A stretch of 64,000 nt of DNA from Candidatus Kerfeldbacteria bacterium. GTDB taxonomy: Bacteria > Patescibacteriota > Patescibacteriia > UBA9570 > XYC2-FULL-38-9. The notes beneath the pieces were generated by a model. It was given only the letters and a program-made list of their open reading frames with translations, did no database searches and had not been told where the DNA came from. Made by a program: the position numbers and the translations under genes. The DNA lies in NCBI GenBank assembly GCA_016182555.1, contig JACPGJ010000008.1, positions 28,272 through 92,271 of the forward strand, written 5' to 3'. Numbering within the stretch: position 1 is the first letter of the stretch; every line of letters starts with the position of its first letter. This document shows positions 35,088 through 49,598 of this stretch, in pieces.

Positions 35088-35906
35088 ATGACCTCTGTCT
35101 GGAAGAATAGACGAGCGACTGCTCCATGGGTAATCCCGGCGCTGATTAGTGTTGTGCTCATATTGCATTATTCGCATATCACACGGCCGCTGGATAATAT
35201 TATTACCTGGATCATACAGCCATTAGAAACGCGCACCTATCTTCTTTCCCAACGTTTTTTTGGCAACCAAGATCGTACGGAACAAAACCTCTCTTACAAT
35301 CAATTGCTCGCTCAACATACGGAAGATCAAGATACTATTCAAAACTTAATTATTGAAAATGCGCATTTACAGACATTAGTAGATGAAGTTCATTTATTAG
35401 AAGAGCAAAATACATTTTTACAAGAACGATCGTTTCAAGTAGTCACTGCACGAGTGACCAGTCGCTCAACCGATCAATTATCCCAAACAATGGTTATTAA
35501 TCGTGGTTCCAAACAGGGGATACAAACCGGATTACCGGTAATTGTGCAGAACGGTTTATTAGTGGGCATGATTCGTGAAGTGCAAGATTATTCAGCAGAA
35601 GTGTTATTATTGACCAGTTTTGATGCTCGTGTTAGCGGATTAGTCCAAAATGACAGTCAGAGTCCTGGTATTGTGACAGGAGCGCATAATCTCACTTTGG
35701 AAATGGATTTTATTCCACAATTTGATTCAGTAACCAGTGGGCAGTCCGTATTTACCAGTGGTACAGATCCCTTTATCCCTGGTGGTTTAGTCATTGGTCA
35801 AATTGCTGAAGTGAAGAGCGATGCTGGTTCTCTGTTTCAACATGCCTCTCTAGAATCCTTGTTTCAACCCGCTGAAATATCTATTGTTTCTATTATTTTA
35901 CCGTAA
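35088..35906 (+). CDS. mreC: rod shape-determining protein MreC
   Basis: N-terminal TM, a coiled-coil segment, a C-terminal beta-rich domain (GLPVIVQNGLLVGMIREV ... GIVTGA), and position after mreB. Confidence 0.7.
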   Translation: MTSVWKNRRATAPWVIPALISVVLILHYSHITRPLDNIITWIIQPLETRTYLLSQRFFGNQDRTEQNLSYNQLLAQHTEDQDTIQNLIIENAHLQTLVDEVHLLEEQNTFLQERSFQVVTARVTSRSTDQLSQTMVINRGSKQGIQTGLPVIVQNGLLVGMIREVQDYSAEVLLLTSFDARVSGLVQNDSQSPGIVTGAHNLTLEMDFIPQFDSVTSGQSVFTSGTDPFIPGGLVIGQIAEVKSDAGSLFQHASLESLFQPAEISIVSIILP

Positions 35907-35913
35907 GCGCATT

Positions 35914-36444
35914 ATGATGAAGCGTATGCTGACCATGAGTATTTGGATACTGACACTCCTCATCACGGCAGTGCTTTCTATTGCATTCTTTGGTTCATCA
36001 AATTTTTTCGCGCGCGCGATCAATATTCCATTAGTCCTTGGTTTTTCTTTCATTATTTTCCGATATCCCTATCGTGGATATGTTGTGCTTGCTGTTTTAT
36101 TCTATATTGTAGATCTGCATTCCGCGTTGCCATTTGGCATGATGTTGAGCGCCGGGTTATTGGCTGGATGGGGGATTGTATTCGTGCAACAAAACATTTT
36201 AAAAAATTTCGCATTGTACTCTGTAGTGCTGTATACGCTTATCGGAACAGCACTGTATTATCTTCTGCTCATGGTTATGATTCTGTGCGCACAACAACTA
36301 CACATATTGCAATCTGGCACAGTGGATTGGCATACATTTATCGTCACTGCCGCTACACAAATGGTGGTGCACAGCGTACTATTGGTGACCGTGTTCCTTT
36401 TTGTAAAATTTTTCCATCATCGGTTACTGCATCATTCTTCTTAA
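35914..36444 (+). CDS. mreD: rod shape-determining protein MreD-like membrane protein
   Basis: ATG at 35914 after the mreC stop. About 177 aa with 5-6 TM helices and synteny between mreC and mrdA. Confidence 0.5.
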   Translation: MMKRMLTMSIWILTLLITAVLSIAFFGSSNFFARAINIPLVLGFSFIIFRYPYRGYVVLAVLFYIVDLHSALPFGMMLSAGLLAGWGIVFVQQNILKNFALYSVVLYTLIGTALYYLLLMVMILCAQQLHILQSGTVDWHTFIVTAATQMVVHSVLLVTVFLFVKFFHHRLLHHSS

Positions 36445-36454
36445 AGAAAATGAT

Positions 36455-38332
36455 ATGAGCATGAAATCAAACGATCCATTCTTTATTGATACAGGCGATC
36501 AGCAACAAATGACGTTCAATCGGCCAGCAACACAATTTCGTATTCGTTTTCTCTTATGGATCATTGCCTTGTGCATCAGCATTATTATTGCCCGTGTATT
36601 TTTCCTACAAATTGTCTTTGGAAGCGATTATCGCCGTACCGCTGAAGGAAATCGGATTCAAACACACGTCGTAAAAGCACTCCGCGGAGTTATCTATGAT
36701 GCGAAAGGAGAATTATTGGTAAAGAATATTCCAAATTTTAGTTTAACCATCAATGCACAGCAGGCGCTCAATATTAAAAAAGAAGCACGTGAACAACTAG
36801 CGAACACCCTCGCTCATATTGCGCAATTATCACCAGCCGATATTGTAAATGCATTTGATCAAGCCAAGCGAAGTGGACAAAACGTAGTGCTCAAAGACCA
36901 CATTCCGTACACAGATGCGCTCCAAGATATGATTGCTATTCAACAACTGCCCGCTATTTCCGTTGAACCCTTTTACAGTCGGCAATATTTAGGCGGAGAA
37001 CCATACGCGCATTTGTTGGGATATACAGCAAAAATTTCTGAAACTGAATATGCCAATTTGAAAGATAACGGATATTTATTAACGGACGAAATTGGAAAAA
37101 GTGGAGTAGAAAAATCGTATGAACAAGCATTGCGCGGGAAAGATGGTGAGCAAGATATTGAAGTGGATTTTCGTGGAGCACAGCAATCCGTCGTCGCTGA
37201 TGTGGCGCCACAATCTGGTGATGCGGTTTACTTAAGCATTGAGCCAACACTACAGCGGTTGCTCTATGAGAAAATTAAAACCGCTGTTGATGAACAGCAT
37301 TTGCCTGGTGGTTCTGCGGTTGCCATTGATCCTCGAGATGGTCGAGTCCTCGCACTAGTCTCTTATCCTTCTTACGATAACAATACTTTTGCTCAAGGTA
37401 TTTCGCAAGACGCATACGACGCATTACAGAATGATGAACGCCACCCATTGTTTCACCGAAGCATTGCCGGCCAATATCCTTCGGGTTCTACATTTAAACC
37501 GATAGTCGCCGCGGCAGGCCTAGAAGAAGGAGTGGTAACGCCACAAACTACAATAGTCAGTACTGGAGGTTTACAAATAGATATTTATCGCTTTCCTGAT
37601 TGGAAACCGGGTGGACACGGAGTAACCGATTTGAATAAAGCCATGGCTGAATCCGTCAATACCTATTTTTACCTGCTCGGTGGCGGCGATAATAAAACCA
37701 GCACAGGTCTGGGTGTGGAACGTATTACCGCCTATGCACGGCGTTTTGGTTTAGGTGAGCAGGTCGGCATTGATGTTCCAGGTGAAGCCAGCGGATTCTT
37801 GCCAACGAAACAATGGAAAGAAGAATTTAAAAACGAGCAATGGTACATTGGGGATACCTATCATTATGCTATTGGCCAAGGAGATTTATTAGTCACTCCA
37901 CTACAAGTCGCTACGTATACGGCAATCATCGCGAATGGAGGCACGTTTTACCAACCACACGTGGTAGAAAAATTAGTTTCTGAAGCTGATGGAAGTACGC
38001 GAATCATTGATCCCATTATCAGCGACCCACAAGTCGTGAGTAAACCAACTATTGAAGCTGTACGACTTGCCATGCGTGAAGATGTTCTTTCTCCAACAGG
38101 GAGTGGTCGGACACTGCAATCCTTACCCGTATCAAGTGCAGGAAAAACAGGTACTGCACAAACCTACGGCGATGAACCGACCCATTCTTGGTTTACCGTT
38201 TTTGCTCCTTATGAAACCCCAGAGATAGCGTTAACGGTTTTAGTTGAAAAAGCAGGCCATGGATATGGTGCAGCCGTACCAATTGCTCGTGAAGTGTTGC
38301 AAGAATACTTCGTAAATCGTATACCGCAGTGA
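36455..38332 (+). CDS. mrdA: penicillin-binding protein 2 (class B transpeptidase)
   Basis: N-terminal TM, a dimerisation domain, and transpeptidase motifs STFKP, SVN and KTGTA. Confidence 0.85.
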   Translation: MSMKSNDPFFIDTGDQQQMTFNRPATQFRIRFLLWIIALCISIIIARVFFLQIVFGSDYRRTAEGNRIQTHVVKALRGVIYDAKGELLVKNIPNFSLTINAQQALNIKKEAREQLANTLAHIAQLSPADIVNAFDQAKRSGQNVVLKDHIPYTDALQDMIAIQQLPAISVEPFYSRQYLGGEPYAHLLGYTAKISETEYANLKDNGYLLTDEIGKSGVEKSYEQALRGKDGEQDIEVDFRGAQQSVVADVAPQSGDAVYLSIEPTLQRLLYEKIKTAVDEQHLPGGSAVAIDPRDGRVLALVSYPSYDNNTFAQGISQDAYDALQNDERHPLFHRSIAGQYPSGSTFKPIVAAAGLEEGVVTPQTTIVSTGGLQIDIYRFPDWKPGGHGVTDLNKAMAESVNTYFYLLGGGDNKTSTGLGVERITAYARRFGLGEQVGIDVPGEASGFLPTKQWKEEFKNEQWYIGDTYHYAIGQGDLLVTPLQVATYTAIIANGGTFYQPHVVEKLVSEADGSTRIIDPIISDPQVVSKPTIEAVRLAMREDVLSPTGSGRTLQSLPVSSAGKTGTAQTYGDEPTHSWFTVFAPYETPEIALTVLVEKAGHGYGAAVPIAREVLQEYFVNRIPQ

Positions 38333-38389: not shown

Positions 38390-38418
38390 TTGACAGATAC
38401 AGCGAAGTATCCTATCAT
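38390..38418 (+). promoter_or_regulatory. candidate sigma70 promoter for greA (-35 TTGACA 38390-38395, 17-nt spacer, -10 TATCAT 38413-38418); SD-like AGAAGG upstream of ATG 38463
   Basis: Hexamers and spacing read from the sequence in a 130-nt intergenic spacer. Confidence 0.4.
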
Positions 38419-38462: not shown

Positions 38463-38927
38463 ATGACGAAGAAAACGTTTATTACAAAAGCGGGGCTGCA
38501 AAAAATTCAAGACGAATTACAAGAACTCAAAACAACGAAGCGCAAAGAAATTGCTAACCGTATTCAGGAGGCAAAGGAATTAGGAGATCTTTCCGAAAAC
38601 GCTGAATATATTGAGGCAAAAGAAGAGCAGGGTTTTGTAGAAAGCCGTATTATTGAGTTAGAACAAATGCTCAAAAACACCGAACTGATCGCCCCAAGCA
38701 AAAAAATTCAAGGCGTGCAGATTGGTTCTACGATTACGATTACCGGCCCAGGTGACATAAAAATGACCTACACGATTGTGGGTTCTTCTGAAGCCGATCC
38801 AAAAGGAAACTTCATTTCCAATGAATCACCACTCGGAGCGGCATTTTTAGGGCGGGATGCCGGTGATGATGTGACCGTACGCACACCAAATGGGGAAGTG
38901 AGTTATACGATCGTTTCAGTTGAATAA
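38463..38927 (+). CDS. greA: transcription elongation factor GreA
   Basis: 154 aa with an N-terminal coiled coil (acidic tip LGDLSENAEY) and a C-terminal FKBP-like domain. Confidence 0.9.
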   Translation: MTKKTFITKAGLQKIQDELQELKTTKRKEIANRIQEAKELGDLSENAEYIEAKEEQGFVESRIIELEQMLKNTELIAPSKKIQGVQIGSTITITGPGDIKMTYTIVGSSEADPKGNFISNESPLGAAFLGRDAGDDVTVRTPNGEVSYTIVSVE

Positions 38928-38986
38928 TTTATCATTTTCCGCTAGAGTAACAGGGTGAATACTACACCCTGTTATTTATTTTACTT

Positions 38987-41083
38987 ATGTCACAAAATCA
39001 CGCTTCACCAATTGACGAATATCAACAACGTATAGCGAAGATGCAAGAACTGCGCGACCTTCAGATTGATCCTTACCCGGCTCAATCTGATCGAACGAGT
39101 ACGGTTGCGCAATTTTTGGAAACATTTGAACTCTTAGCAGCAGAACAGCGTACACAAACATTGACTGGCCGAATTCGATTAAAACGGGAACATGGTAAAT
39201 TAACCTTTGCTCACCTCCAAGACGCAAGTGGAAAAATTCAATTGGTGTTTTCTCAAGCTGAGCTTGGTGAAGATGCCTATGCACAGATGAATCGATTTTT
39301 TGATGTGGCTGATATTATTCAAATTACCGGAACACCTTTCCTGACCAAAAAAGGGGAACAATCAATCTTGGTCACGCAACCACCGCTGATGTTGGCAAAA
39401 GCCTTGCGCCCGTTACCAGAGAAGTGGAAAGGGATTCAAGATGAAGAAACACGTTTCCGCAAACGATACCTGGATATGGTCATGAACCCAGAATTGCGCG
39501 AAATGTTCGTGAAGAAAAGCCTTTTTTGGAATGCCATGCGTACATTTCTTATTGATGAAGGGTTTTTAGAAATTGAAACACCGATATTAGAATCGACACC
39601 TGGTGGCGCTGATGCTGAGCCATTTATTACACATCATAACGCACTGGGTATTGATTTATTTTTGCGCATTTCCGTTGGCGAGTTGTGGCAAAAACGGTTA
39701 ATGGTGGCGGGGTTTGAAAAAACATTCGAAATTGGTCGTGTATTTCGCAATGAGGGTATGAGTCCTGAACATTTACAAGATTATACAGCCATGGAGTTTT
39801 ATTGGGCATATGCGGATTATAACGATAGCATGAAGCTCGTGGAGCGTATGTACAAACATTGTATTATGGCGACATTTGGCACATTGCAATTTTCTATTCG
39901 TGGATTTCATATCAATTTTGATACAGAATGGGGCCACATCGATTATGCACAAACAATTCAGGAGCAATTAGATATTGATATTCTTGCTGCCAGTGATGAT
40001 GAAATTGCTGCGAAAGCAAGAACCATTGGTATGACGGTGGAAGAACATGCTAACCGTGCCCGGTTAGTAGATTCATTATGGAAATATTGTCGTAAATCGA
40101 TTGCTGGGCCGGTTTTTTTGGTGAATCATCCAGTAGATGTGTCACCACTCGCCAAACGAAAAGGCAGCGATGCACGTTTGGTGGAGCGATATCAAATTAT
40201 TATTGCTGGGAGCGAACAAGGAAATGGCTATTCCGAATTAAATGACCCCATGGACCAACGAGCACGTTTTGAAGAGCAAGCAAAACTGCGTGAAGCGGGC
40301 GATACTGAAGCACAAATGCATGATGAAGATTTCGTTGAAGCACTGGAGCATGGGATGCCGCCAACTACCGGCTTTGGTGTGAGTGAACGATTATTTTCCT
40401 TCTTAATGGATAAACCCATTCGTGAATGTGTAATGTTTCCGCTCTTGCGGCCAAAACAACCCGCAATGGTTGATTCGCCTGATACCATAACGTCCGCTAC
40501 GGAATCATCAGATTATTCATTGCAATCATTTGAAGCCGGTATATCAAGAGAACATGCACGAATGTGGCTTTTTCAAGAAGTGAAAGATGAAAATTTACGA
40601 CGTCACATGTTGGCTACGGAAGCGCTGATGAAAGCTCTTGCGCGTCATTTTGGAGCAGCTTCTCCAGAGAGTTGGGGAATAGCCGGGCTCTTGCATGATA
40701 TTGATTGGGAAAAAACATCTATGGATCAACATGGTCTTGTGGGCGCGGAAATGGCAAAAGAAAAAAATATTCATCCACTTATTGTTGACGCCATTCGTGA
40801 ACATAATTATCACCACAAGCTTGAACCAAAAACGCTGTTGTCAAAAGCGATGATGTGTTTAGAGCAGTTGACTGGTCTGATTTCTGCAGCCACATTTGTT
40901 CAGCCAGATAAAAATGTTCATTCAGTCAAGTTAAGTAGCGTGAAGAAAAAATTTAAAGATAAAGGCTTTGCCAAAGGGGTCGACCGAACAATGATTGCAA
41001 AATGTGAAGAACTCCTTGGCCTTTCACTTGATCAATCCATTGAAATCTGTTTAAAAGCCATGCAAGATTCGCCACAAGAATGA
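38987..41083 (+). CDS. lysS: lysine--tRNA ligase (class II) fused to a C-terminal HD-domain (YqeK/HDIG-like)
   Basis: 698 aa. Residues 1 to about 495 are a complete LysRS (OB fold, motifs 1-3, FRNEG, GGADA, PPTTGFGVSERL). Residues about 520-690 carry an HD-domain signature (RRHMLATEALMKALARHFG ... GLLHDIDWEK ... EHNYHH). Confidence 0.8.
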   Translation: MSQNHASPIDEYQQRIAKMQELRDLQIDPYPAQSDRTSTVAQFLETFELLAAEQRTQTLTGRIRLKREHGKLTFAHLQDASGKIQLVFSQAELGEDAYAQMNRFFDVADIIQITGTPFLTKKGEQSILVTQPPLMLAKALRPLPEKWKGIQDEETRFRKRYLDMVMNPELREMFVKKSLFWNAMRTFLIDEGFLEIETPILESTPGGADAEPFITHHNALGIDLFLRISVGELWQKRLMVAGFEKTFEIGRVFRNEGMSPEHLQDYTAMEFYWAYADYNDSMKLVERMYKHCIMATFGTLQFSIRGFHINFDTEWGHIDYAQTIQEQLDIDILAASDDEIAAKARTIGMTVEEHANRARLVDSLWKYCRKSIAGPVFLVNHPVDVSPLAKRKGSDARLVERYQIIIAGSEQGNGYSELNDPMDQRARFEEQAKLREAGDTEAQMHDEDFVEALEHGMPPTTGFGVSERLFSFLMDKPIRECVMFPLLRPKQPAMVDSPDTITSATESSDYSLQSFEAGISREHARMWLFQEVKDENLRRHMLATEALMKALARHFGAASPESWGIAGLLHDIDWEKTSMDQHGLVGAEMAKEKNIHPLIVDAIREHNYHHKLEPKTLLSKAMMCLEQLTGLISAATFVQPDKNVHSVKLSSVKKKFKDKGFAKGVDRTMIAKCEELLGLSLDQSIEICLKAMQDSPQE

Positions 41084-41108: not shown

Positions 41109-42380
41109 ATGCTAGACATTCAATACATTCGACAATACCCTGAACTTGTTCAACAAAACGCCGATAAACGTGGTGTGAAAGTGAATATGCAATTGCTTCT
41201 TCACCGTGATGAAGCATTGCGCAATCGAACCCAAGAGCTGGATACGTTACGCGCTGATCGCAATAGCATTGCTGCGCAAATGCAACAAACGGGAGGCAAA
41301 AATGTTGAGCTGATTGAACAAGGGAAATTAGTAAAAGTAAAAATTGCTGAAATTGAACAAGAAGTAGAACGGCTACGTGAAGAATTCCAAGCGCTCATGA
41401 TGCAGGTGCCCAATATGACGCATCCAGATTCACCGATTGGAAAAAATGATCTTGAAAATGTCGAAATTCGGCGGTTTCAAGAGCCCACTGAGTTTTCTTT
41501 TCCTCCAAAAGATCACGTGGAGCTCGGGAAGTCATTGGATCTTATCGATTTTGAACGTGGTGCCGATGTGGCAGGAAAGGGGTTTTACTATTTGAAAAAT
41601 GAAGCGGTATTACTCGAATTGGCACTGGTGAATTACGCTATGGATACCTGTATGGCTGAAGGATTTATGCCGATGATGACGCCAGACCTCGCGTATTCGC
41701 ACGTACTCGCGGGAACAGGCTTTGCTCCGCGGGGCCCGGAAACACAAATTTATAATCTTGAAAATACCAATTTATCTCTTATTGCGACCGCAGAAATTGG
41801 AGTTGCTGGCTATTATCAGAATCATCTTTTTGCAGCAGGTGAACTAGACCAACCGCTCAAAATTGTCGCTTTATCTCATTGTTTTCGCACAGAAGCAGGT
41901 TCGTATGGTCGAGAATCACGTGGTTTGTATCGCGTGCACCAATTTACGAAAGTGGAAATGTTTATCTATAGCAAGCCAGAAGATTCAGAAGCTATGCATC
42001 AGCATCTTTTGGAAGTAGAGGAAAAAATTATGCAACACTTAGAAATACCATATCGTGTCGTCGATATTTGTACCGGAGATTTAGGTGGAGCAGCTTATCG
42101 CAAATATGATGTAGAAGCCTGGATGCCATTTAAGCAAGATTGGGGAGAGGTCACTTCGACATCAAATTGTACGGATTATCAAGCTCGTCGATTGAATATT
42201 AAATATGTAAATGCGGAAGGAAAGAAAGAATATGTGCATACACTCAATGGCACCGCTATTGCGTTGTCTCGAACACCCATTGCTGTTTTAGAAAATTTTC
42301 AACAAGCGGATGGTTCGATTAAAATACCTCAAGTATTGCACCCATATATGTTTGGGAAAACCATGATCAATCGCCGTTAA
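41109..42380 (+). CDS. serS: serine--tRNA ligase
   Basis: 423 aa with an N-terminal coiled-coil arm and a class II core (FRTEAGSYGRESRGLYRVHQF). Confidence 0.9.
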   Translation: MLDIQYIRQYPELVQQNADKRGVKVNMQLLLHRDEALRNRTQELDTLRADRNSIAAQMQQTGGKNVELIEQGKLVKVKIAEIEQEVERLREEFQALMMQVPNMTHPDSPIGKNDLENVEIRRFQEPTEFSFPPKDHVELGKSLDLIDFERGADVAGKGFYYLKNEAVLLELALVNYAMDTCMAEGFMPMMTPDLAYSHVLAGTGFAPRGPETQIYNLENTNLSLIATAEIGVAGYYQNHLFAAGELDQPLKIVALSHCFRTEAGSYGRESRGLYRVHQFTKVEMFIYSKPEDSEAMHQHLLEVEEKIMQHLEIPYRVVDICTGDLGGAAYRKYDVEAWMPFKQDWGEVTSTSNCTDYQARRLNIKYVNAEGKKEYVHTLNGTAIALSRTPIAVLENFQQADGSIKIPQVLHPYMFGKTMINRR

Positions 42381-43105
42381 CGACGTGCTTCCCAAGGAGT
42401 TTCATTTGAGCGTTTGAACACGCATTGAGAAAGCCAGTTAGTAAACCACGACCAGAGTAAACAGCCCCACCCATCGCGATGGATGCGCCTTCCGGACATC
42501 CGCATCGGATATTTCATCCAGACGCGAGTTTTTCCTAAACGAGTAAGACGGTGAAAAATATCCCAATCTTCTGAGGTGTAGAGTGCTGGGTTATAGCCAT
42601 TGATCTCTTCAAAAGAAGCGCGACGAATAATTTGACAATCTCCACCAGCACCACCAAGCCCGATCATGTTGACGAAGTACATATTCGCATTCACCACGCC
42701 AAACCAAAAACGGTCAATAACCCGCTCTTCTTCTGGATAGAGCCGTGAAGGGAGAGCCACAGCAATTAATTTTTTTTGCTGAGCAAATTGTTGCTTTACC
42801 AAAGAGAGTACCGCATTCAGGTGCGGAATCAATACGTCAGCATCAGTAAAGAAAAGAACATCCCCAGTAGCGACGCGAGCGCCACGGTTGCGACACTCGC
42901 CAATACTGGAACGCTCTGATTCTGTAATAGAGAGCACTGTATCTGCCAACGGCGCAGCTATTTTCGTGGTCATATCACTACTACCATTATCAGAAATAAT
43001 AATTTCACAATCTGTGCCACGAAACGGTTGCCACTGTTCGAGAGTTTTCCTTATACGTTTTTCTTCATTATATGTGGGAATGATGACAGATATTTTCATA
43101 CGCAT
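42377..43105 (-). CDS. glycosyltransferase family 2 (last gene of the minus-strand operon)
   Basis: Start chosen at the ATG encoding MRMKISVIIPTYNEE (43105), 10 nt after the upstream stop. DNGSSD ... FTDADV (DxD). Confidence 0.7.
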   Translation of the reverse strand: MRMKISVIIPTYNEEKRIRKTLEQWQPFRGTDCEIIISDNGSSDMTTKIAAPLADTVLSITESERSSIGECRNRGARVATGDVLFFTDADVLIPHLNAVLSLVKQQFAQQKKLIAVALPSRLYPEEERVIDRFWFGVVNANMYFVNMIGLGGAGGDCQIIRRASFEEINGYNPALYTSEDWDIFHRLTRLGKTRVWMKYPMRMSGRRIHRDGWGCLLWSWFTNWLSQCVFKRSNETPWEARR

Positions 43106-43115
43106 GATATGGAGA

Positions 43116-44165
43116 TTACCAAAAACCTCTTTTAATACGGCGCGCAGTTTCAATAATGCGAGTAAGATAATATTTCGACCGAATAGGATAATCCTGACAA
43201 GGAAGTAAATCAATACGCTCTCCACCAAAACCGGTTTTGAATGTCGTCACGCCGGCAAACGGATGTGGCCGTCGGGTGATACGCGAACGCATTTTATTCT
43301 CTGGTACAATACCCCAAAAATTATAGGCAAGACACCCACGTCGCTTTGCTTCACGTATTGCTTCCCATTGTAATAGATACGACGCTGGAATTTTTTGAAA
43401 TTCACTTAATGAGGCCCCATGATGATACGAAGCCATATCGCCGTAAAACATGATCATGGCTGCGGCAATCACTTTCCCTTCATATTCTGCTAAAAACATG
43501 GCGACTTGATCAGCTTTGACAAATGCACGAAATTGAGCACGAAAAAAATCGTCTTTATAGGGAACAAAACCGTGCCGTTCAACAGTGCTTTTGTGAATGC
43601 GAATGAAATGTTCAACATCGTCTGGATTTTTACTCATCCGAATCGTAACGCCATCACGAGTAGCACGACGAATAAGATTACGCATCGTTTTTCGCATCCC
43701 AACAAGTAGCGTATCTTCTGCTGGTGTAATATCCAACCACCATACATGTTCAGCAAGCATGTGCAATGGAGCACGCCGCCAACCTGCACGATAATACAAC
43801 GCACGATTATCTTTTGCGTCAACAATAAAGGGAGACGAGCGGATGAAGTCGATATTCAGCTCTTTTGCTTTTTTCACGACATACTGTGTAAGCTCGGGTA
43901 CATACTGCCATTTATGCATCTGAAATACTGGACCATAGGGAAGATAAAAAAAATGTCCACGCTTTGCGCGCACAATGACCACAAAAGCCACGCCAATGAG
44001 TATGTTATCTTCTTTCACTCCAATGAGGAGTGATGATTCGCCAACCGTTTCGTGGACCTCGCGCATATACCACGATTGTAAAAATGGCGGCCGAGGAAAA
44101 CCCAATAAAAAATTTTCCCATTCTTCCTGGTTGATCTTTTCAGTGATGACAAGATTAGCGTTCAT
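43116..44165 (-). CDS. FemAB-family aminoacyl/peptidyl transferase (FemX-like)
   Basis: 349 aa with an N-terminal LPYGPV, two GNAT-like halves, and a C-terminal FKTGFGG typical of FemABX. It overlaps the upstream gene by 11 nt. Confidence 0.6.
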   Translation of the reverse strand: MNANLVITEKINQEEWENFLLGFPRPPFLQSWYMREVHETVGESSLLIGVKEDNILIGVAFVVIVRAKRGHFFYLPYGPVFQMHKWQYVPELTQYVVKKAKELNIDFIRSSPFIVDAKDNRALYYRAGWRRAPLHMLAEHVWWLDITPAEDTLLVGMRKTMRNLIRRATRDGVTIRMSKNPDDVEHFIRIHKSTVERHGFVPYKDDFFRAQFRAFVKADQVAMFLAEYEGKVIAAAMIMFYGDMASYHHGASLSEFQKIPASYLLQWEAIREAKRRGCLAYNFWGIVPENKMRSRITRRPHPFAGVTTFKTGFGGERIDLLPCQDYPIRSKYYLTRIIETARRIKRGFW

Positions 44166-47820: not shown

Positions 47821-47943
47821 ATGTGTATTATAGCGAATATTCACCTATAGCACCAATTCTTCGAGAGCTTCGTTTGGCTTCGCAAAGCCGTGCTCTCTCC
47901 AGAATTGCTGCTCCGGCAAATATACAGTAAAATACTATATGAT

Positions 47944-49134
47944 ATGTTCAAATTCATCCTTCAACAAAGAAACAGGAAACGGATACGGGCGATGCAAAAC
48001 CAACGGCCTACCAATTTTCGAAGTACAAAAATTCCTTCGCCACAAAAAACAGCATCCAGTGAAATATGGCGCGTCATCTGTTCATGGATAAAAAAAGATG
48101 GTTGGGCAATCATTGGTATTATCGGGATGATGGGAGTAACGAGCTGGTACTTTGGGTTCCACCAACAACATTTTCATATTCATGATGTGCATATTGAAGG
48201 AAATAAATTTATTCATACAGAAGATATTCAACATGTTGTTGATCAATTTACTTCCAGCAAAACTATCATTTTTTTGAAACGAAACACGTTTTGGACATTC
48301 AAAGCTGAGGCTCTTGAAAAACAATTGTATCAATCTTTGAGTAGCACCTATGCATTAGAACAGGTAGAAGTGCAAAAAAAATTTCCAAATAGTGTAGCGA
48401 TAACGGTTACCGAACGGATACCCAGTGTCACCTGGGTCACCACGTCTTCTGGAACAGAGCATTGGTATACGGTAGACCGAGAGGGCATTGTTACGCAAGT
48501 GTTGGGTTCGCCAGACCAGGCGGATACATCATTTCCGATTATCCGTGATACTAATCGTGATCAATTTGAAGCTGGTTGGCATATCATTTCTTCTCAATAT
48601 ATTGATTTTGTTTTACATCTGCATGAACAAATGGAAAACACAACTGGGACACATGTGGATTCTTATGTATTGCCGCTGATGCAATGCCAAGAACAACAAT
48701 ATGTGACCGAGGAAATTTTTAAACAAGAATTACAGAATTCTGCTTCTGATGAATTTCGTGACAAGAAACGTGAAATTCAAGAAAAATTTCAACGCGGAGA
48801 ATTAACAGTTGATGAAAGTTTAGAAGAATTAGAAAAAATTAAAGAAGAAGAGTTTCAACAAAATCATGAAGGAGAAGATACTAAAGGGGTGCAAGGGCAT
48901 GTTGAATGGCAAACGGTGTATGTTCCTGTAACGTGTGATTTTGTGAACGTCGCTACTGAAGTACATGTCATGACTAGCGGAGACCATGCTGGTTACCAAG
49001 TATATATGGATACCAGCCTCGATCTTTCTACCCAATTGCAAAATCTAGAATCCGTTTTACAAGAAAAAATTAGCGATCCAACAGCTATTCAATACATTGA
49101 TGTGCGTTTTGCTGATCGTGTCTATTATCAATAA
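47944..49134 (+). CDS. ftsQ: FtsQ/DivIB-like cell-division protein with an acidic insertion
   Basis: TM helix WAIIGIIGMMGVTSWYFGF, a POTRA-like IHDVHIEGNKFIHTEDI, and KFPNSVAITVTERIPSVTW. The ORF track begins with GTG at 47890; ATG 47944 is used here (start uncertain). Confidence 0.5.
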   Translation: MFKFILQQRNRKRIRAMQNQRPTNFRSTKIPSPQKTASSEIWRVICSWIKKDGWAIIGIIGMMGVTSWYFGFHQQHFHIHDVHIEGNKFIHTEDIQHVVDQFTSSKTIIFLKRNTFWTFKAEALEKQLYQSLSSTYALEQVEVQKKFPNSVAITVTERIPSVTWVTTSSGTEHWYTVDREGIVTQVLGSPDQADTSFPIIRDTNRDQFEAGWHIISSQYIDFVLHLHEQMENTTGTHVDSYVLPLMQCQEQQYVTEEIFKQELQNSASDEFRDKKREIQEKFQRGELTVDESLEELEKIKEEEFQQNHEGEDTKGVQGHVEWQTVYVPVTCDFVNVATEVHVMTSGDHAGYQVYMDTSLDLSTQLQNLESVLQEKISDPTAIQYIDVRFADRVYYQ

Positions 49135-49148
49135 GTGTCGTAAAATAT

Positions 49149-49598
49149 ATGAATCGGAAAAATCGTCTACCGAAAAAAGGGGACGGATATCATGTAGCTA
49201 TTGCCATTATCCGTTATCAAAATAATATCTTATTAACACGGCGGAACGATCCAGAAAGCCCATGGCATGACTTTTGGGAGTTTCCTGGTGGAGGCGTTGA
49301 AGCTGACGAAACAATTGACATGGCTCTCCAAAGAGAAATTTTTGAAGAAGTTGGTATGCAAATAGGCATTGGTGATTATGTGTACATGAAGACATATATG
49401 TATACAGGCAACAAAACTACAAAATCGATTTATTTGCATGTCTATAGTATACAGTGCAAGGATGAGCCAAAAATTGTATTAGACCCACTAGAGTCTAGTG
49501 CCTATGAGTGGGTAGAAGTGAGTGAAGTGGCTCATTACCCGGGCTTATTGCCACAAAATATTGAAATGATTGATGATTATATAAGTGCAGATATATAA
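49149..49598 (+). CDS. NUDIX hydrolase
   Basis: Nudix box GGGVEADETIDMALQREIFEEVG. Confidence 0.8.
   Translation: MNRKNRLPKKGDGYHVAIAIIRYQNNILLTRRNDPESPWHDFWEFPGGGVEADETIDMALQREIFEEVGMQIGIGDYVYMKTYMYTGNKTTKSIYLHVYSIQCKDEPKIVLDPLESSAYEWVEVSEVAHYPGLLPQNIEMIDDYISADI

Follow-up and report, generated by a model that had tools for sequence, protein, structure and literature searches.

Lysyl-tRNA synthetase (LysRS) is the classical and most efficient synthetase of diadenosine tetraphosphate (Ap4A; PMC7705103). Among the hydrolases of this dinucleotide, ApaH has been reported from proteobacteria, and YqeK (COG1713, TIGR00488; structures 2O08, 2OGI, 3CCG, 8JJA and 8WMY), the symmetrical Ap4A hydrolase of Firmicutes, has been reported from Firmicutes, Thermotogae and Deinococcus-Thermus (PMC10148737). 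The ligand pattern H..HD..H..H..D/E is diagnostic of dinuclear HD sites, as in YqeK, HD-GYP, PgpH and the HD oxygenases, and HD phosphatases are described as marked by an Arg about three positions ahead of the first His (PMC8177086). In the YqeK of S. pyogenes, mutation of Lys62, in the HDxxK motif, strongly lowers Ap4A cleavage (PMC11857287). Domains appended to aminoacyl-tRNA synthetases and HD phosphohydrolases are each well known, and the combination of LysRS with an HD module is undescribed; no account of such a fusion, or of the function of the HD family involved, was found in the literature. The present analysis concerns a gene with this architecture, lysS-HD, in a stretch of 64,000 nt (the window) from Candidatus Kerfeldbacteria bacterium (GCA_016182555.1, contig JACPGJ010000008.1, positions 28,272-92,271 of the forward strand). 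The fusion was confirmed as genuine and conserved, and its HD module is very probably, from the conservation of its active site, a metal-dependent hydrolase.

Architecture of the lysS-HD gene

The gene lies at 38987-41083 on the plus strand, as are all of its features given below, and consists of a single open reading frame (ORF) with an ATG start and 698 codons plus stop. A preliminary interpretation of the letters by themselves (the sequence-only reading) had described this ORF as extending about 200 residues beyond a LysRS core, and this was borne out, the core ending at residue 490 (FPLLRPK). Three parts were confirmed: a complete LysRS, an entire HDIG-type HD protein of about 180 residues and, between them, a variable linker of about 28 residues. 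The class II LysRS module (residues 1-490; 38987-40456) was delimited by Pfam, NCBIfam and alignment with the Geobacillus LysRS 3A74. It contains an oligonucleotide-binding (OB) anticodon-binding domain (residues 58-130; 39158-39376; Pfam tRNA_anti-codon, PF01336) and the class II (D/K/N) catalytic core (residues 152-486; 39440-40444; Pfam tRNA-synt_2, PF00152, E 8e-70). The cut-offs of the NCBIfam LysRS models were exceeded (TIGR00499, 492.7 bits for a cut-off of 427.6; NF001756, 537.3 bits for a cut-off of 468). Residues 8-490 aligned with residues 5-493 of 3A74 (E 1.7e-121), with motif 2 (FRNEG) and the Arg of motif 3 present. Because the last residue of that 493-residue enzyme aligns with residue 490, the additional 200 or so residues form a true appendage rather than an expansion within the enzyme. 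Motif 3 of the window clade (40352-40378, residues 456-464 approximately) reads GFGVS-ERLF, as it does in L006, P0121, P0001, P0002 and P0134; compared with the canonical GLGIGVDRL of solved LysRS structures it lacks one residue and has Ser in place of the third Gly, while the motif Arg is kept.

The HD module (residues 519-698; 40541-41080) was delimited by alignment, by domain matches and by an AlphaFold2 model. The matches to Pfam HD (PF01966, residues 539-619, 37.1-39.6 bits against a gathering threshold of 22, for the whole protein and the tail alone) and to NCBIfam HDIG (TIGR00277, 40.9-43.4 bits for the tail against a cut-off of 27.6) were both significant, as the sequence-only reading had expected, although the literal motif is HDID and not HDIG. 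Similarity of the tail to Pfam HDOD was weak and below the cut-off. The two modules are separated by a low-complexity, poorly conserved stretch (residues 491-518; 40457-40540), recognised by identity comparison and by a low predicted local distance difference test score (pLDDT). It is 4-31% identical to the corresponding stretch of fused relatives, as against 42-67% for both domains, and measures 19-72 residues in other fusions. As it diverges and varies in length while both flanking domains are conserved, it is a genuine interdomain linker. The full-length AlphaFold2 model had a predicted template modelling score (pTM) of 0.63, with each domain confident singly and a pLDDT below 50 for residues 488-507, and the tether between LysRS and HD is accordingly modelled as flexible.

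Continuity of the reading frame at the junction, near 40470, was among the checks named by the sequence-only reading, and the read-through proved genuine. Across 40400-40580 the LysRS frame alone is open, with several stops in the other two, and there are no homopolymers of six or more bases in 40300-40700. Uninterrupted fusions were also present in the independent assemblies L001, L002, L006 and L085, and within the species-level genome collection the same unbroken frame was seen both in the closest relative (L006, 64-67% identical) and in a distant one (L085, 42-49%). In two fragments from the ends of contigs of unrelated metagenomes (JGI 3300037465 and ENA ERZ27393964), the C-terminus of LysRS leads directly into HD at 53-57% identity, and one of them continues with serS and femAB, like the window. 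Of the best 120 clusters at the 90% identity level, more than 100 were full-length fusions of 677-744 residues with 95-100% query coverage, and they came from many Patescibacteria. The same frame was seen in JGI, ENA, NCBI and Logan assemblies at 35-65% identity. The sequences are already public, and the sources that name them say plainly 'lysine--tRNA ligase'; one NCBI protein (P0271, 'MAG: lysine--tRNA ligase [Candidatus Kerfeldbacteria bacterium]', MAG standing for metagenome-assembled genome) is 100% identical to the window protein. The additional HD enzyme is therefore invisible in current annotation.

An artefact of assembly, sequencing or gene calling, that is, a stop or frameshift missed between lysS and a downstream HD gene, would find some encouragement in the relatives that carry the two as separate genes (L004, L007, L025, L030 and L068). 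The clean frame, the stops in the other two frames, the lack of a homopolymer nearby and the recurrence of the frame in independent assemblies make this explanation hardly credible, and it is effectively refuted by the open frame and those assemblies. The sequence-only reading had held that it would be refuted by homologous loci with a separately encoded tail if the fusion here stemmed from a sequencing error. Such loci do exist, but because many true fusions stand beside them, they mark a series in evolution rather than an error of sequencing.

The HD family and its active site

A search with the tail alone returned 758 proteins, nearly all of them standalone and 183-186 residues long, labelled only as 'HDIG domain-containing metalloprotein', 'phosphohydrolase' or 'putative nucleotidyltransferase with HDIG domain'. 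Aligned with these proteins, the tail begins at their Met1 (residue 519 of the fusion) and reaches nearly to the C-terminal end, and the architecture is for this reason that of a whole LysRS, a linker and a whole HD protein. By sequence, the module is thus assigned to a widespread, uncharacterised family of proteins of about 183 residues. Among the matches listed, this family was found in at least 598 species genomes, from Patescibacteria, Chloroflexota, Bacillota, Desulfobacterota, Elusimicrobiota, Gemmatimonadota, Thermaceae, Planctomycetota and Bathyarchaeia.

Conservation was counted over 39 fused and 191 standalone copies, and for some positions over 235 sequences. The invariant positions of the family are H540, H570, D571, H582, H606, an acidic residue at 626, T629-G630, P640 and F661-A662...R667. 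The motifs that the sequence-only reading had quoted from the tail (RRH540, GLLH570D571IDW and REH606N) are present and coincide with these. The codon of His540, the first metal ligand, lies at 40604-40606 and aligns with the first ligand of YqeK; codons H570-D571-I572-D573, the HD dyad with a family-specific Asp, lie at 40694-40705. His582 (40730-40732), the third His ligand, for the second metal, was aligned with His91 of YqeK in 8jja and 8wmy, the invariant His606 (40802-40804) is the fourth His ligand, and Glu626 (40862-40864), the terminal acidic ligand, was aligned with the last Asp of YqeK. The six ligands were kept in all 235 sequences bar one gap at H540 (39/39 fused and 190/191 standalone copies, the single exception being an alignment gap); position 626 was D or E in 235/235, and D573 was kept in 37/39 fused and 191/191 standalone copies. 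The position directly before the first His was mostly basic (K in 150 and R in 21 of the 191 standalone copies). The C-terminal half of the module contains many invariant Lys and Arg residues and a distinctive motif, FKxKxFAxGxxR. A model of the module built with AlphaFold2 on the family alignment was of high confidence (pLDDT 93.7, pTM 0.89) and showed an all-helical HD fold.

The six di-metal ligands, together with F661, A662 and R667, were kept in all 39 fused copies, matching the 191 standalone ones, which argues that the fused module is under active-site selection. As a degenerate scaffold or a tRNA-binding HD-like domain would hardly keep this ligand set, the module is treated as an active hydrolase. 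A purely non-catalytic role, in which HD would be a nucleotide-sensing or tRNA-binding appendage regulating the synthetase, along lines suggested for certain HD-like domains of aminoacyl-tRNA synthetases, could appeal to the HD-fold domain of the GlyRS beta subunit, which has a tRNA-contacting role and was matched by Foldseek, and to the weak HDOD similarity. With fused copies indistinguishable from standalone ones at the ligands and further pocket residues, and with the HDOD score below its cut-off, such a role is considered very improbable. A defence or phage origin was also looked for and was rejected (0 PADLOC and 0 PHROGs families at E up to 0.01).

The likeness to YqeK and HDIG hydrolases put forward by the sequence-only reading held in part. 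YqeK structures were the five best hits when the family profile was searched against the PDB (8JJA, 1e-6; 8WMY, 2e-5; 2OGI, 5e-5; 3CCG; 2O08), with the H, HD, H, H and D positions aligned, and the extended di-metal motif of YqeK (H21, H50, D51, H83, H109 and D127 in 2O08) is complete in the window tail. In Foldseek against the PDB the best match, a weak one, was again YqeK (8wmy, E 0.011, TM 0.46), followed by the HD domain of the GlyRS beta subunit (7eiv_D, E 0.02), Ddi2 cyanamide hydratase and HDOD proteins. A PDB search with the tail as a single sequence gave chance matches only (RAF kinase and others, E >0.1). The HDIG match, these weak structural hits and the six ligands thus stood; membership of YqeK did not. 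No match of the window tail to TIGR00488 appeared at E up to 1, another residue stands at the place of Lys62, and the genomic context differs: yqeK lies with nadD, in an operon or as a NadD-YqeK fusion, and none of the annotated genes flanking lysS-HD, whose neighbours are greA and serS, is nadD. Among 30 family members scanned, 13 matched TIGR00488 weakly (best E 4.6e-5) and 23 matched PRK07152 (NadD-YqeK) weakly, while all 30 matched HDIG (best 4e-18) and PRK12703, the HD part of archaeal Trm56 (best 1.5e-12), 29 matched RNase Y (best 1.3e-10) and 26 matched TIGR00295. The conclusion from these comparisons is that the module represents a distinct HDIG family with a predicted YqeK-like di-metal centre, and not a YqeK.

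Recurrence of the link and genomic context

The named sources of fusions in the best clusters were Kerfeldbacteria, Jacksonbacteria, Gribaldobacteria and 'Patescibacteria group', with P0140 from Candidatus Parcubacteria. In a library clustered at 50% identity, 36 of the 150 nearest LysRS representatives carried the HD module, at identities to the window down to 35%. Approaching the link from the HD side, 80 species-level loci with the family were fetched and lysS was looked for within 8 kb. HD was fused to LysRS in two of these loci, and no other fusion partner occurred among the 80. In four loci (L007, L025, L030 and L068) the HD gene lay 31-77 nt downstream of lysS, in one it lay 2.3 kb away, and the remainder, from other phyla and some genomes of the candidate phyla radiation (CPR), had no lysS within 8 kb. 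Every stage was therefore observed among relatives: near, adjacent, fused and absent. In Patescibacteria the HD gene repeatedly came to lie beside lysS and fused to it. On a rough neighbour-joining tree without support values, fused HD modules fell in at least four to five separate places, mixed with standalone ones. A single representative, P0190 (715 residues), which is counted among the 36, appears to have the reverse order, with HD at residues 1-179 and LysRS at 222-713, and may stem from a separate fusion. The tree positions and P0190 point to fusion or fission on more than one occasion, and to selection for the link. One LysRS-HD protein on a 3.7-kb contig (P0317, 686 residues, 58% identical to the window) carries the NCBI label 'Candidatus Thermoplasmatota archaeon'; this contig is probably mis-binned Patescibacteria.

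The HD protein is one of several modules found at the C-terminus of Patescibacterial LysRS, and 38 of the 150 nearest representatives had an extension of more than 100 residues other than HD. The modules are combined in various ways (P0124, P0127, P0130, P0131, P0134, P0151, P0172, P0203, P0214 and P0244). Variants with HD were LysRS-B3/4-HD (P0124), LysRS-DUF2000-HD (P0203), LysRS-HAD-HD (P0130), LysRS-NUDIX-HD (P0244) and LysRS-tRNA_bind-B3/4-HD (P0131), the insert of the last matching the PheT N-terminus and the YtpR and TapR tRNA-binding families. Those lacking HD were LysRS-DUF2000, LysRS-B3/4 and LysRS-B3/4-DUF2000 (P0214), along with tails of MprF-like, TPR and enolase_C type. In PheRS, B3/4 serves as the editing domain of the beta subunit; DUF2000 matched only structure 2GAX, of unknown function, and its fold may be related to peptidyl-tRNA hydrolase 2. 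The NUDIX and HAD inserts had no specific subfamily match that might give a clue to substrate. Literature searches under architectures of CPR aminoacyl-tRNA synthetases and under DUF2000 with tRNA found nothing describing these fusions.

Outside CPR, the commonest neighbour of the HD gene was RNase R, directly downstream and in the same orientation (11/80 loci, mostly Bacillota-like), in a block of the order eno-secG-(H+-PPase)-HD-rnr-smpB; in L003 this is eno-secG-H+-PPase-(4HBT)-HD-rnr-smpB, and L040 belongs to the same set. Ham1/RdgB followed the HD gene directly in three CPR loci.

In the window, lysS-HD is part of a housekeeping block in the order RseP-like M50 protease, mreB, mreC, an unannotated membrane ORF, PBP2, greA, lysS-HD and serS. 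The upstream neighbour greA (38463-38927, plus strand; Pfam GreA_GreB_N and GreA_GreB) ends 59 nt before the fusion and has the same place in L004 and L086, and serS (41109-42380, plus strand; Pfam Seryl_tRNA_N and tRNA-synt_2b) begins after a gap of 25 nt and has the same place in L001, L004 and L086. Beyond serS, on the opposite strand, are genes for a GT2 glycosyltransferase, femAB, a DegT aminotransferase and a Mur ligase. The related Kerfeldbacteria locus L086 has the identical block, with a LysRS ending at 490 residues and serS 9 nt on. In L004, a Patescibacteria MAG, PBP2, greA and lysS (494 residues) are followed by five small genes, HD, HTH, NUDIX, Ham1 and serS, and the HD protein of 184 residues is 56% identical to the window tail. 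The fusion thus shares a syntenic slot with the unfused lysS of relatives, and because the block from the M50 protease through mreB, mreC, PBP2, greA, lysS and serS to femAB recurs in L086 and L004, its LysRS part is orthologous to the housekeeping gene. From its sequence the gene is taken to be the organism's housekeeping class II LysRS with an HD tail, lysylation itself being predicted.

Several further features of this region were recorded. The gap between greA and lysS-HD contains a hairpin with a 13-bp stem followed by a T-rich run (38945-38977, plus strand), and upstream of greA there is an 11/12 match to the sigma-70 consensus (38390-38418, plus strand), in a region where the count of such sites is not above that of shuffled controls. 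The expected place of mreD, between mreC and PBP2, is taken up by two overlapping ORFs in different frames (35884-36444 and 35943-36458, plus strand); the first is hydrophobic and had no Pfam match, and an unannotated gene of 177 residues has the same place in L086. FemAB proteins use aminoacyl-tRNA as donor. The femAB gene, on the minus strand at 43116-44165, is convergent to serS and is followed by those for DegT and the Mur ligase, as in the related Kerfeldbacteria-like loci L001 (2238-3278) and L086 (8741-9787). In the window, serS and femAB are separated by the inserted GT2 ORF (42377-43228), some 110 nt of which overlap the femAB ORF as listed. A NUDIX hydrolase gene of 149 residues with a canonical Nudix box (49149-49598, plus strand) lies 8 kb downstream of the fusion beside an FtsQ-type POTRA gene (47890-49134), and its product is weakly similar (26%) to that of the NUDIX gene beside HD in L004. 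Gene orientation switches from plus to minus at about 42.4 kb, and GC skew turns from mostly positive to negative at about 42-50 kb, where the cumulative skew peaks; both are compatible with a replication terminus or another strand-bias boundary. ARAGORN found no tRNA or tmRNA genes in the 64-kb window and no Rfam family reached its gathering threshold, so there is no nearby tRNA(Lys) gene or riboswitch to inform function.

Candidate functions and comparison with known systems

Since the linkage is recurrent and specific to LysRS, the HD module may act on something that LysRS makes or handles. The reading tentatively preferred, with a likelihood somewhat short of even, is that it hydrolyses a phosphate compound linked to LysRS, with Ap4A and other dinucleoside polyphosphates (NpnN) as the leading candidates. 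When ATP, ADP or another NTP instead of tRNA attacks lysyl-AMP, LysRS makes Ap4A, Ap3A and Ap4N, and a tethered HD hydrolase would destroy these at source, returning ADP or ATP to a cell dependent on salvaged nucleotides. On the model of other di-metal HD enzymes, a metal-bridged water might attack the phosphoanhydride, and the invariant Arg667 of the FAxGxxR motif, with neighbouring Lys residues, could stand in for the phosphate-binding Lys of YqeK; K642, K657 and R521 are further candidates for that place. Ap4A, Ap3A and Ap4N are favoured because LysRS is their classical source and because the nearest characterised structural relatives of the module hydrolyse exactly these compounds. They are also favoured because the company of the module is nucleotide-centred, NUDIX and HAD being inserted between LysRS and HD (P0244 and P0130) and NUDIX and Ham1 genes lying beside HD in L004 and L085. 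Coupled synthesis and turnover of Ap4A in one chain, as the sequence-only reading had envisaged, is reasonable as a plausible hypothesis and not as a homology-based assignment. No paper was found on Ap4A turnover in Patescibacteria.

A number of observations weigh against this preference. The family is no closer to YqeK than to the HD domains of RNase Y, the Trm56 fusion, TIGR00295 and DVU_1551, and for that reason no substrate can be assigned by homology; Foldseek gave no match with E <1e-3. The position of the phosphate-binding Lys62 of YqeK is W574 in the window, and in 235 sequences it was W, Y, F, V, I or L, rarely R or M and never K. The Arg at -3 from the first His is replaced by Leu537 (N-L537-R-R-H540), with basic residues at -1 and -2 instead. 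At the level of lineages, the family also occurs in Bacillota and Thermaceae, which are among those reported to have YqeK, and this speaks against the two being simply equivalent in function. If the NUDIX and HD modules of a single chain both cleaved Ap4A, they would duplicate each other, and B3/4, tRNA_bind and DUF2000, which are co-fused with HD, suggest a link to tRNA more than to nucleotides. Some Kerfeldbacteria manage without the tail, no HD gene being present at the L086 locus. Finally, the full-length AlphaFold2 model predicted no confident packing of LysRS on HD and no fixed interface, so that proximity of the two active sites is not arguable.

The main rival is a phosphoesterase acting on tRNA(Lys) or on RNA ends, which would, for example, open 2',3'-cyclic phosphates or remove 3'-phosphates, as the HD domain of Cca (a 2',3'-cyclic phosphodiesterase/phosphatase) does, and so serve substrate repair or quality control on LysRS. 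Such a role, rather unlikely on balance, is taken seriously mainly because tRNA-directed modules share the LysRS C-terminus with HD (P0124, P0131 and P0203; B3/4-DUF2000 in P0214). The Trm56-HD and RNase Y models were matched better than YqeK, and the GlyRS beta subunit was among the top Foldseek matches, but the likeness to RNase Y and Trm56-HD is limited to the generic HDIG core (tail residues 39-127 approximately). RNase R, followed by SmpB, was the commonest neighbour outside CPR, but this adjacency may be lineage-specific synteny of the eno-secG-rnr-smpB block. The combination of HAD with HD in P0130 might resemble a pair of 3'-phosphatase and cyclic phosphodiesterase, and the invariant Lys and Arg residues of the C-terminal half would suit an RNA substrate. 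Even so, the module contains no KH, S1 or other RNA-binding domain, and a general RNA enzyme would not be expected to fuse to LysRS alone, the sole partner seen. In a more elaborate form, judged distinctly unlikely, HD would form with B3/4, tRNA_bind and DUF2000 a built-in platform for tRNA(Lys) quality control and repair, healing 2',3'-cyclic or 3'-phosphate ends or removing an aberrant phosphate-linked modification so that the same polypeptide could recharge the tRNA. To our knowledge, tRNA-end healing has not been described for any aminoacyl-tRNA synthetase.

HD could also be a general house-cleaning or salvage hydrolase for (d)NMP/NTP or non-canonical nucleotides with no tie to LysRS, fused as a by-product of genome compaction when the stop codon between co-transcribed neighbours was lost. 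This would agree with the gaps of 31-77 nt between adjacent genes, similar to the linker of about 84 nt, and with the Ham1 and NUDIX neighbours in L004 and L085. Close relatives can do without the tail (L086), the linker is flexible, with no predicted interface, most family members, including many from CPR, are unlinked to lysS, and the LysRS C-terminus also takes seemingly unrelated additions (TPR and enolase_C). A by-product would sit less easily with the spread of fused copies over several clades, with their occurrence at either terminus and together with inserted domains, with a fusion kept down to 35% identity and with the absence of any other HD partner in the sampled loci. These same features argue for selection on the link to LysRS. 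This explanation was considered unlikely.

Hydrolysis of Ap4A or a related LysRS by-product, the preferred reading, would add a further family of Ap4A hydrolases, for phyla without reported ApaH or YqeK, and a natural synthase-hydrolase pair in which to study Ap4A as a by-product or a signal. More generally, the recurrent fusion and adjacency provide 'Rosetta stone' evidence tying a large uncharacterised HDIG family to the chemistry of LysRS, and the link gives this family a short, testable list of substrates. The LysRS of CPR bacteria is a hotspot for accessory hydrolase modules (HD, B3/4, DUF2000, NUDIX and HAD), which is relevant to the fidelity of translation and to the economy of nucleotides in very small genomes. 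The fusion offers a way into the study of an orphan enzyme family and of how bacteria with minimal genomes keep house with Ap4A or tRNA.

Among described systems, YqeK resembles the window module in being a small, all-helical HD protein (about 185-195 residues) with the complete H..HD..H..H..D/E ligand set, and in being known also as a fusion to an enzyme of nucleotide metabolism (NadD-YqeK, PRK07152). The module differs from it in a spacing of 12 residues between the HD dyad and the third His, as against about 33, in the replacement of Lys62 and of the Arg at -3, in the motif FKxKxFAxGxxR, in its lack of nadD context and in a structural similarity of only TM 0.46 or thereabouts. With RNase Y and the PgpH-type HDIG phosphodiesterases it shares the HDIG signature region and the di-metal ligand pattern; unlike them, it has no KH or transmembrane parts and reads 'HDID[WY]' instead of 'HDIGK', and its match to RNase Y spans about 90 residues of the core at 24.6 bits against a cut-off of 454.

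As an HD-fold module attached to an enzyme that handles tRNA, it is comparable to those of the GlyRS beta subunit, Cca and archaeal Trm56-HD (PRK12703). Those are other HD subfamilies on other partners, whereas the window module is a whole independent protein joined by a disordered linker. A housekeeping-type class II LysRS fused to another enzyme is also found in LysX (MprF-LysRS, NF002821), whose partner uses the product of LysRS, Lys-tRNA, for lipid lysinylation. The window protein was rejected as a LysX, reaching 441.3 bits against a cut-off of 742 in its LysRS half only and having no MprF/LPG_synthase domain. LysX has an N-terminal membrane domain, MprF, whereas the partner of LysRS in the window is a soluble phosphohydrolase.

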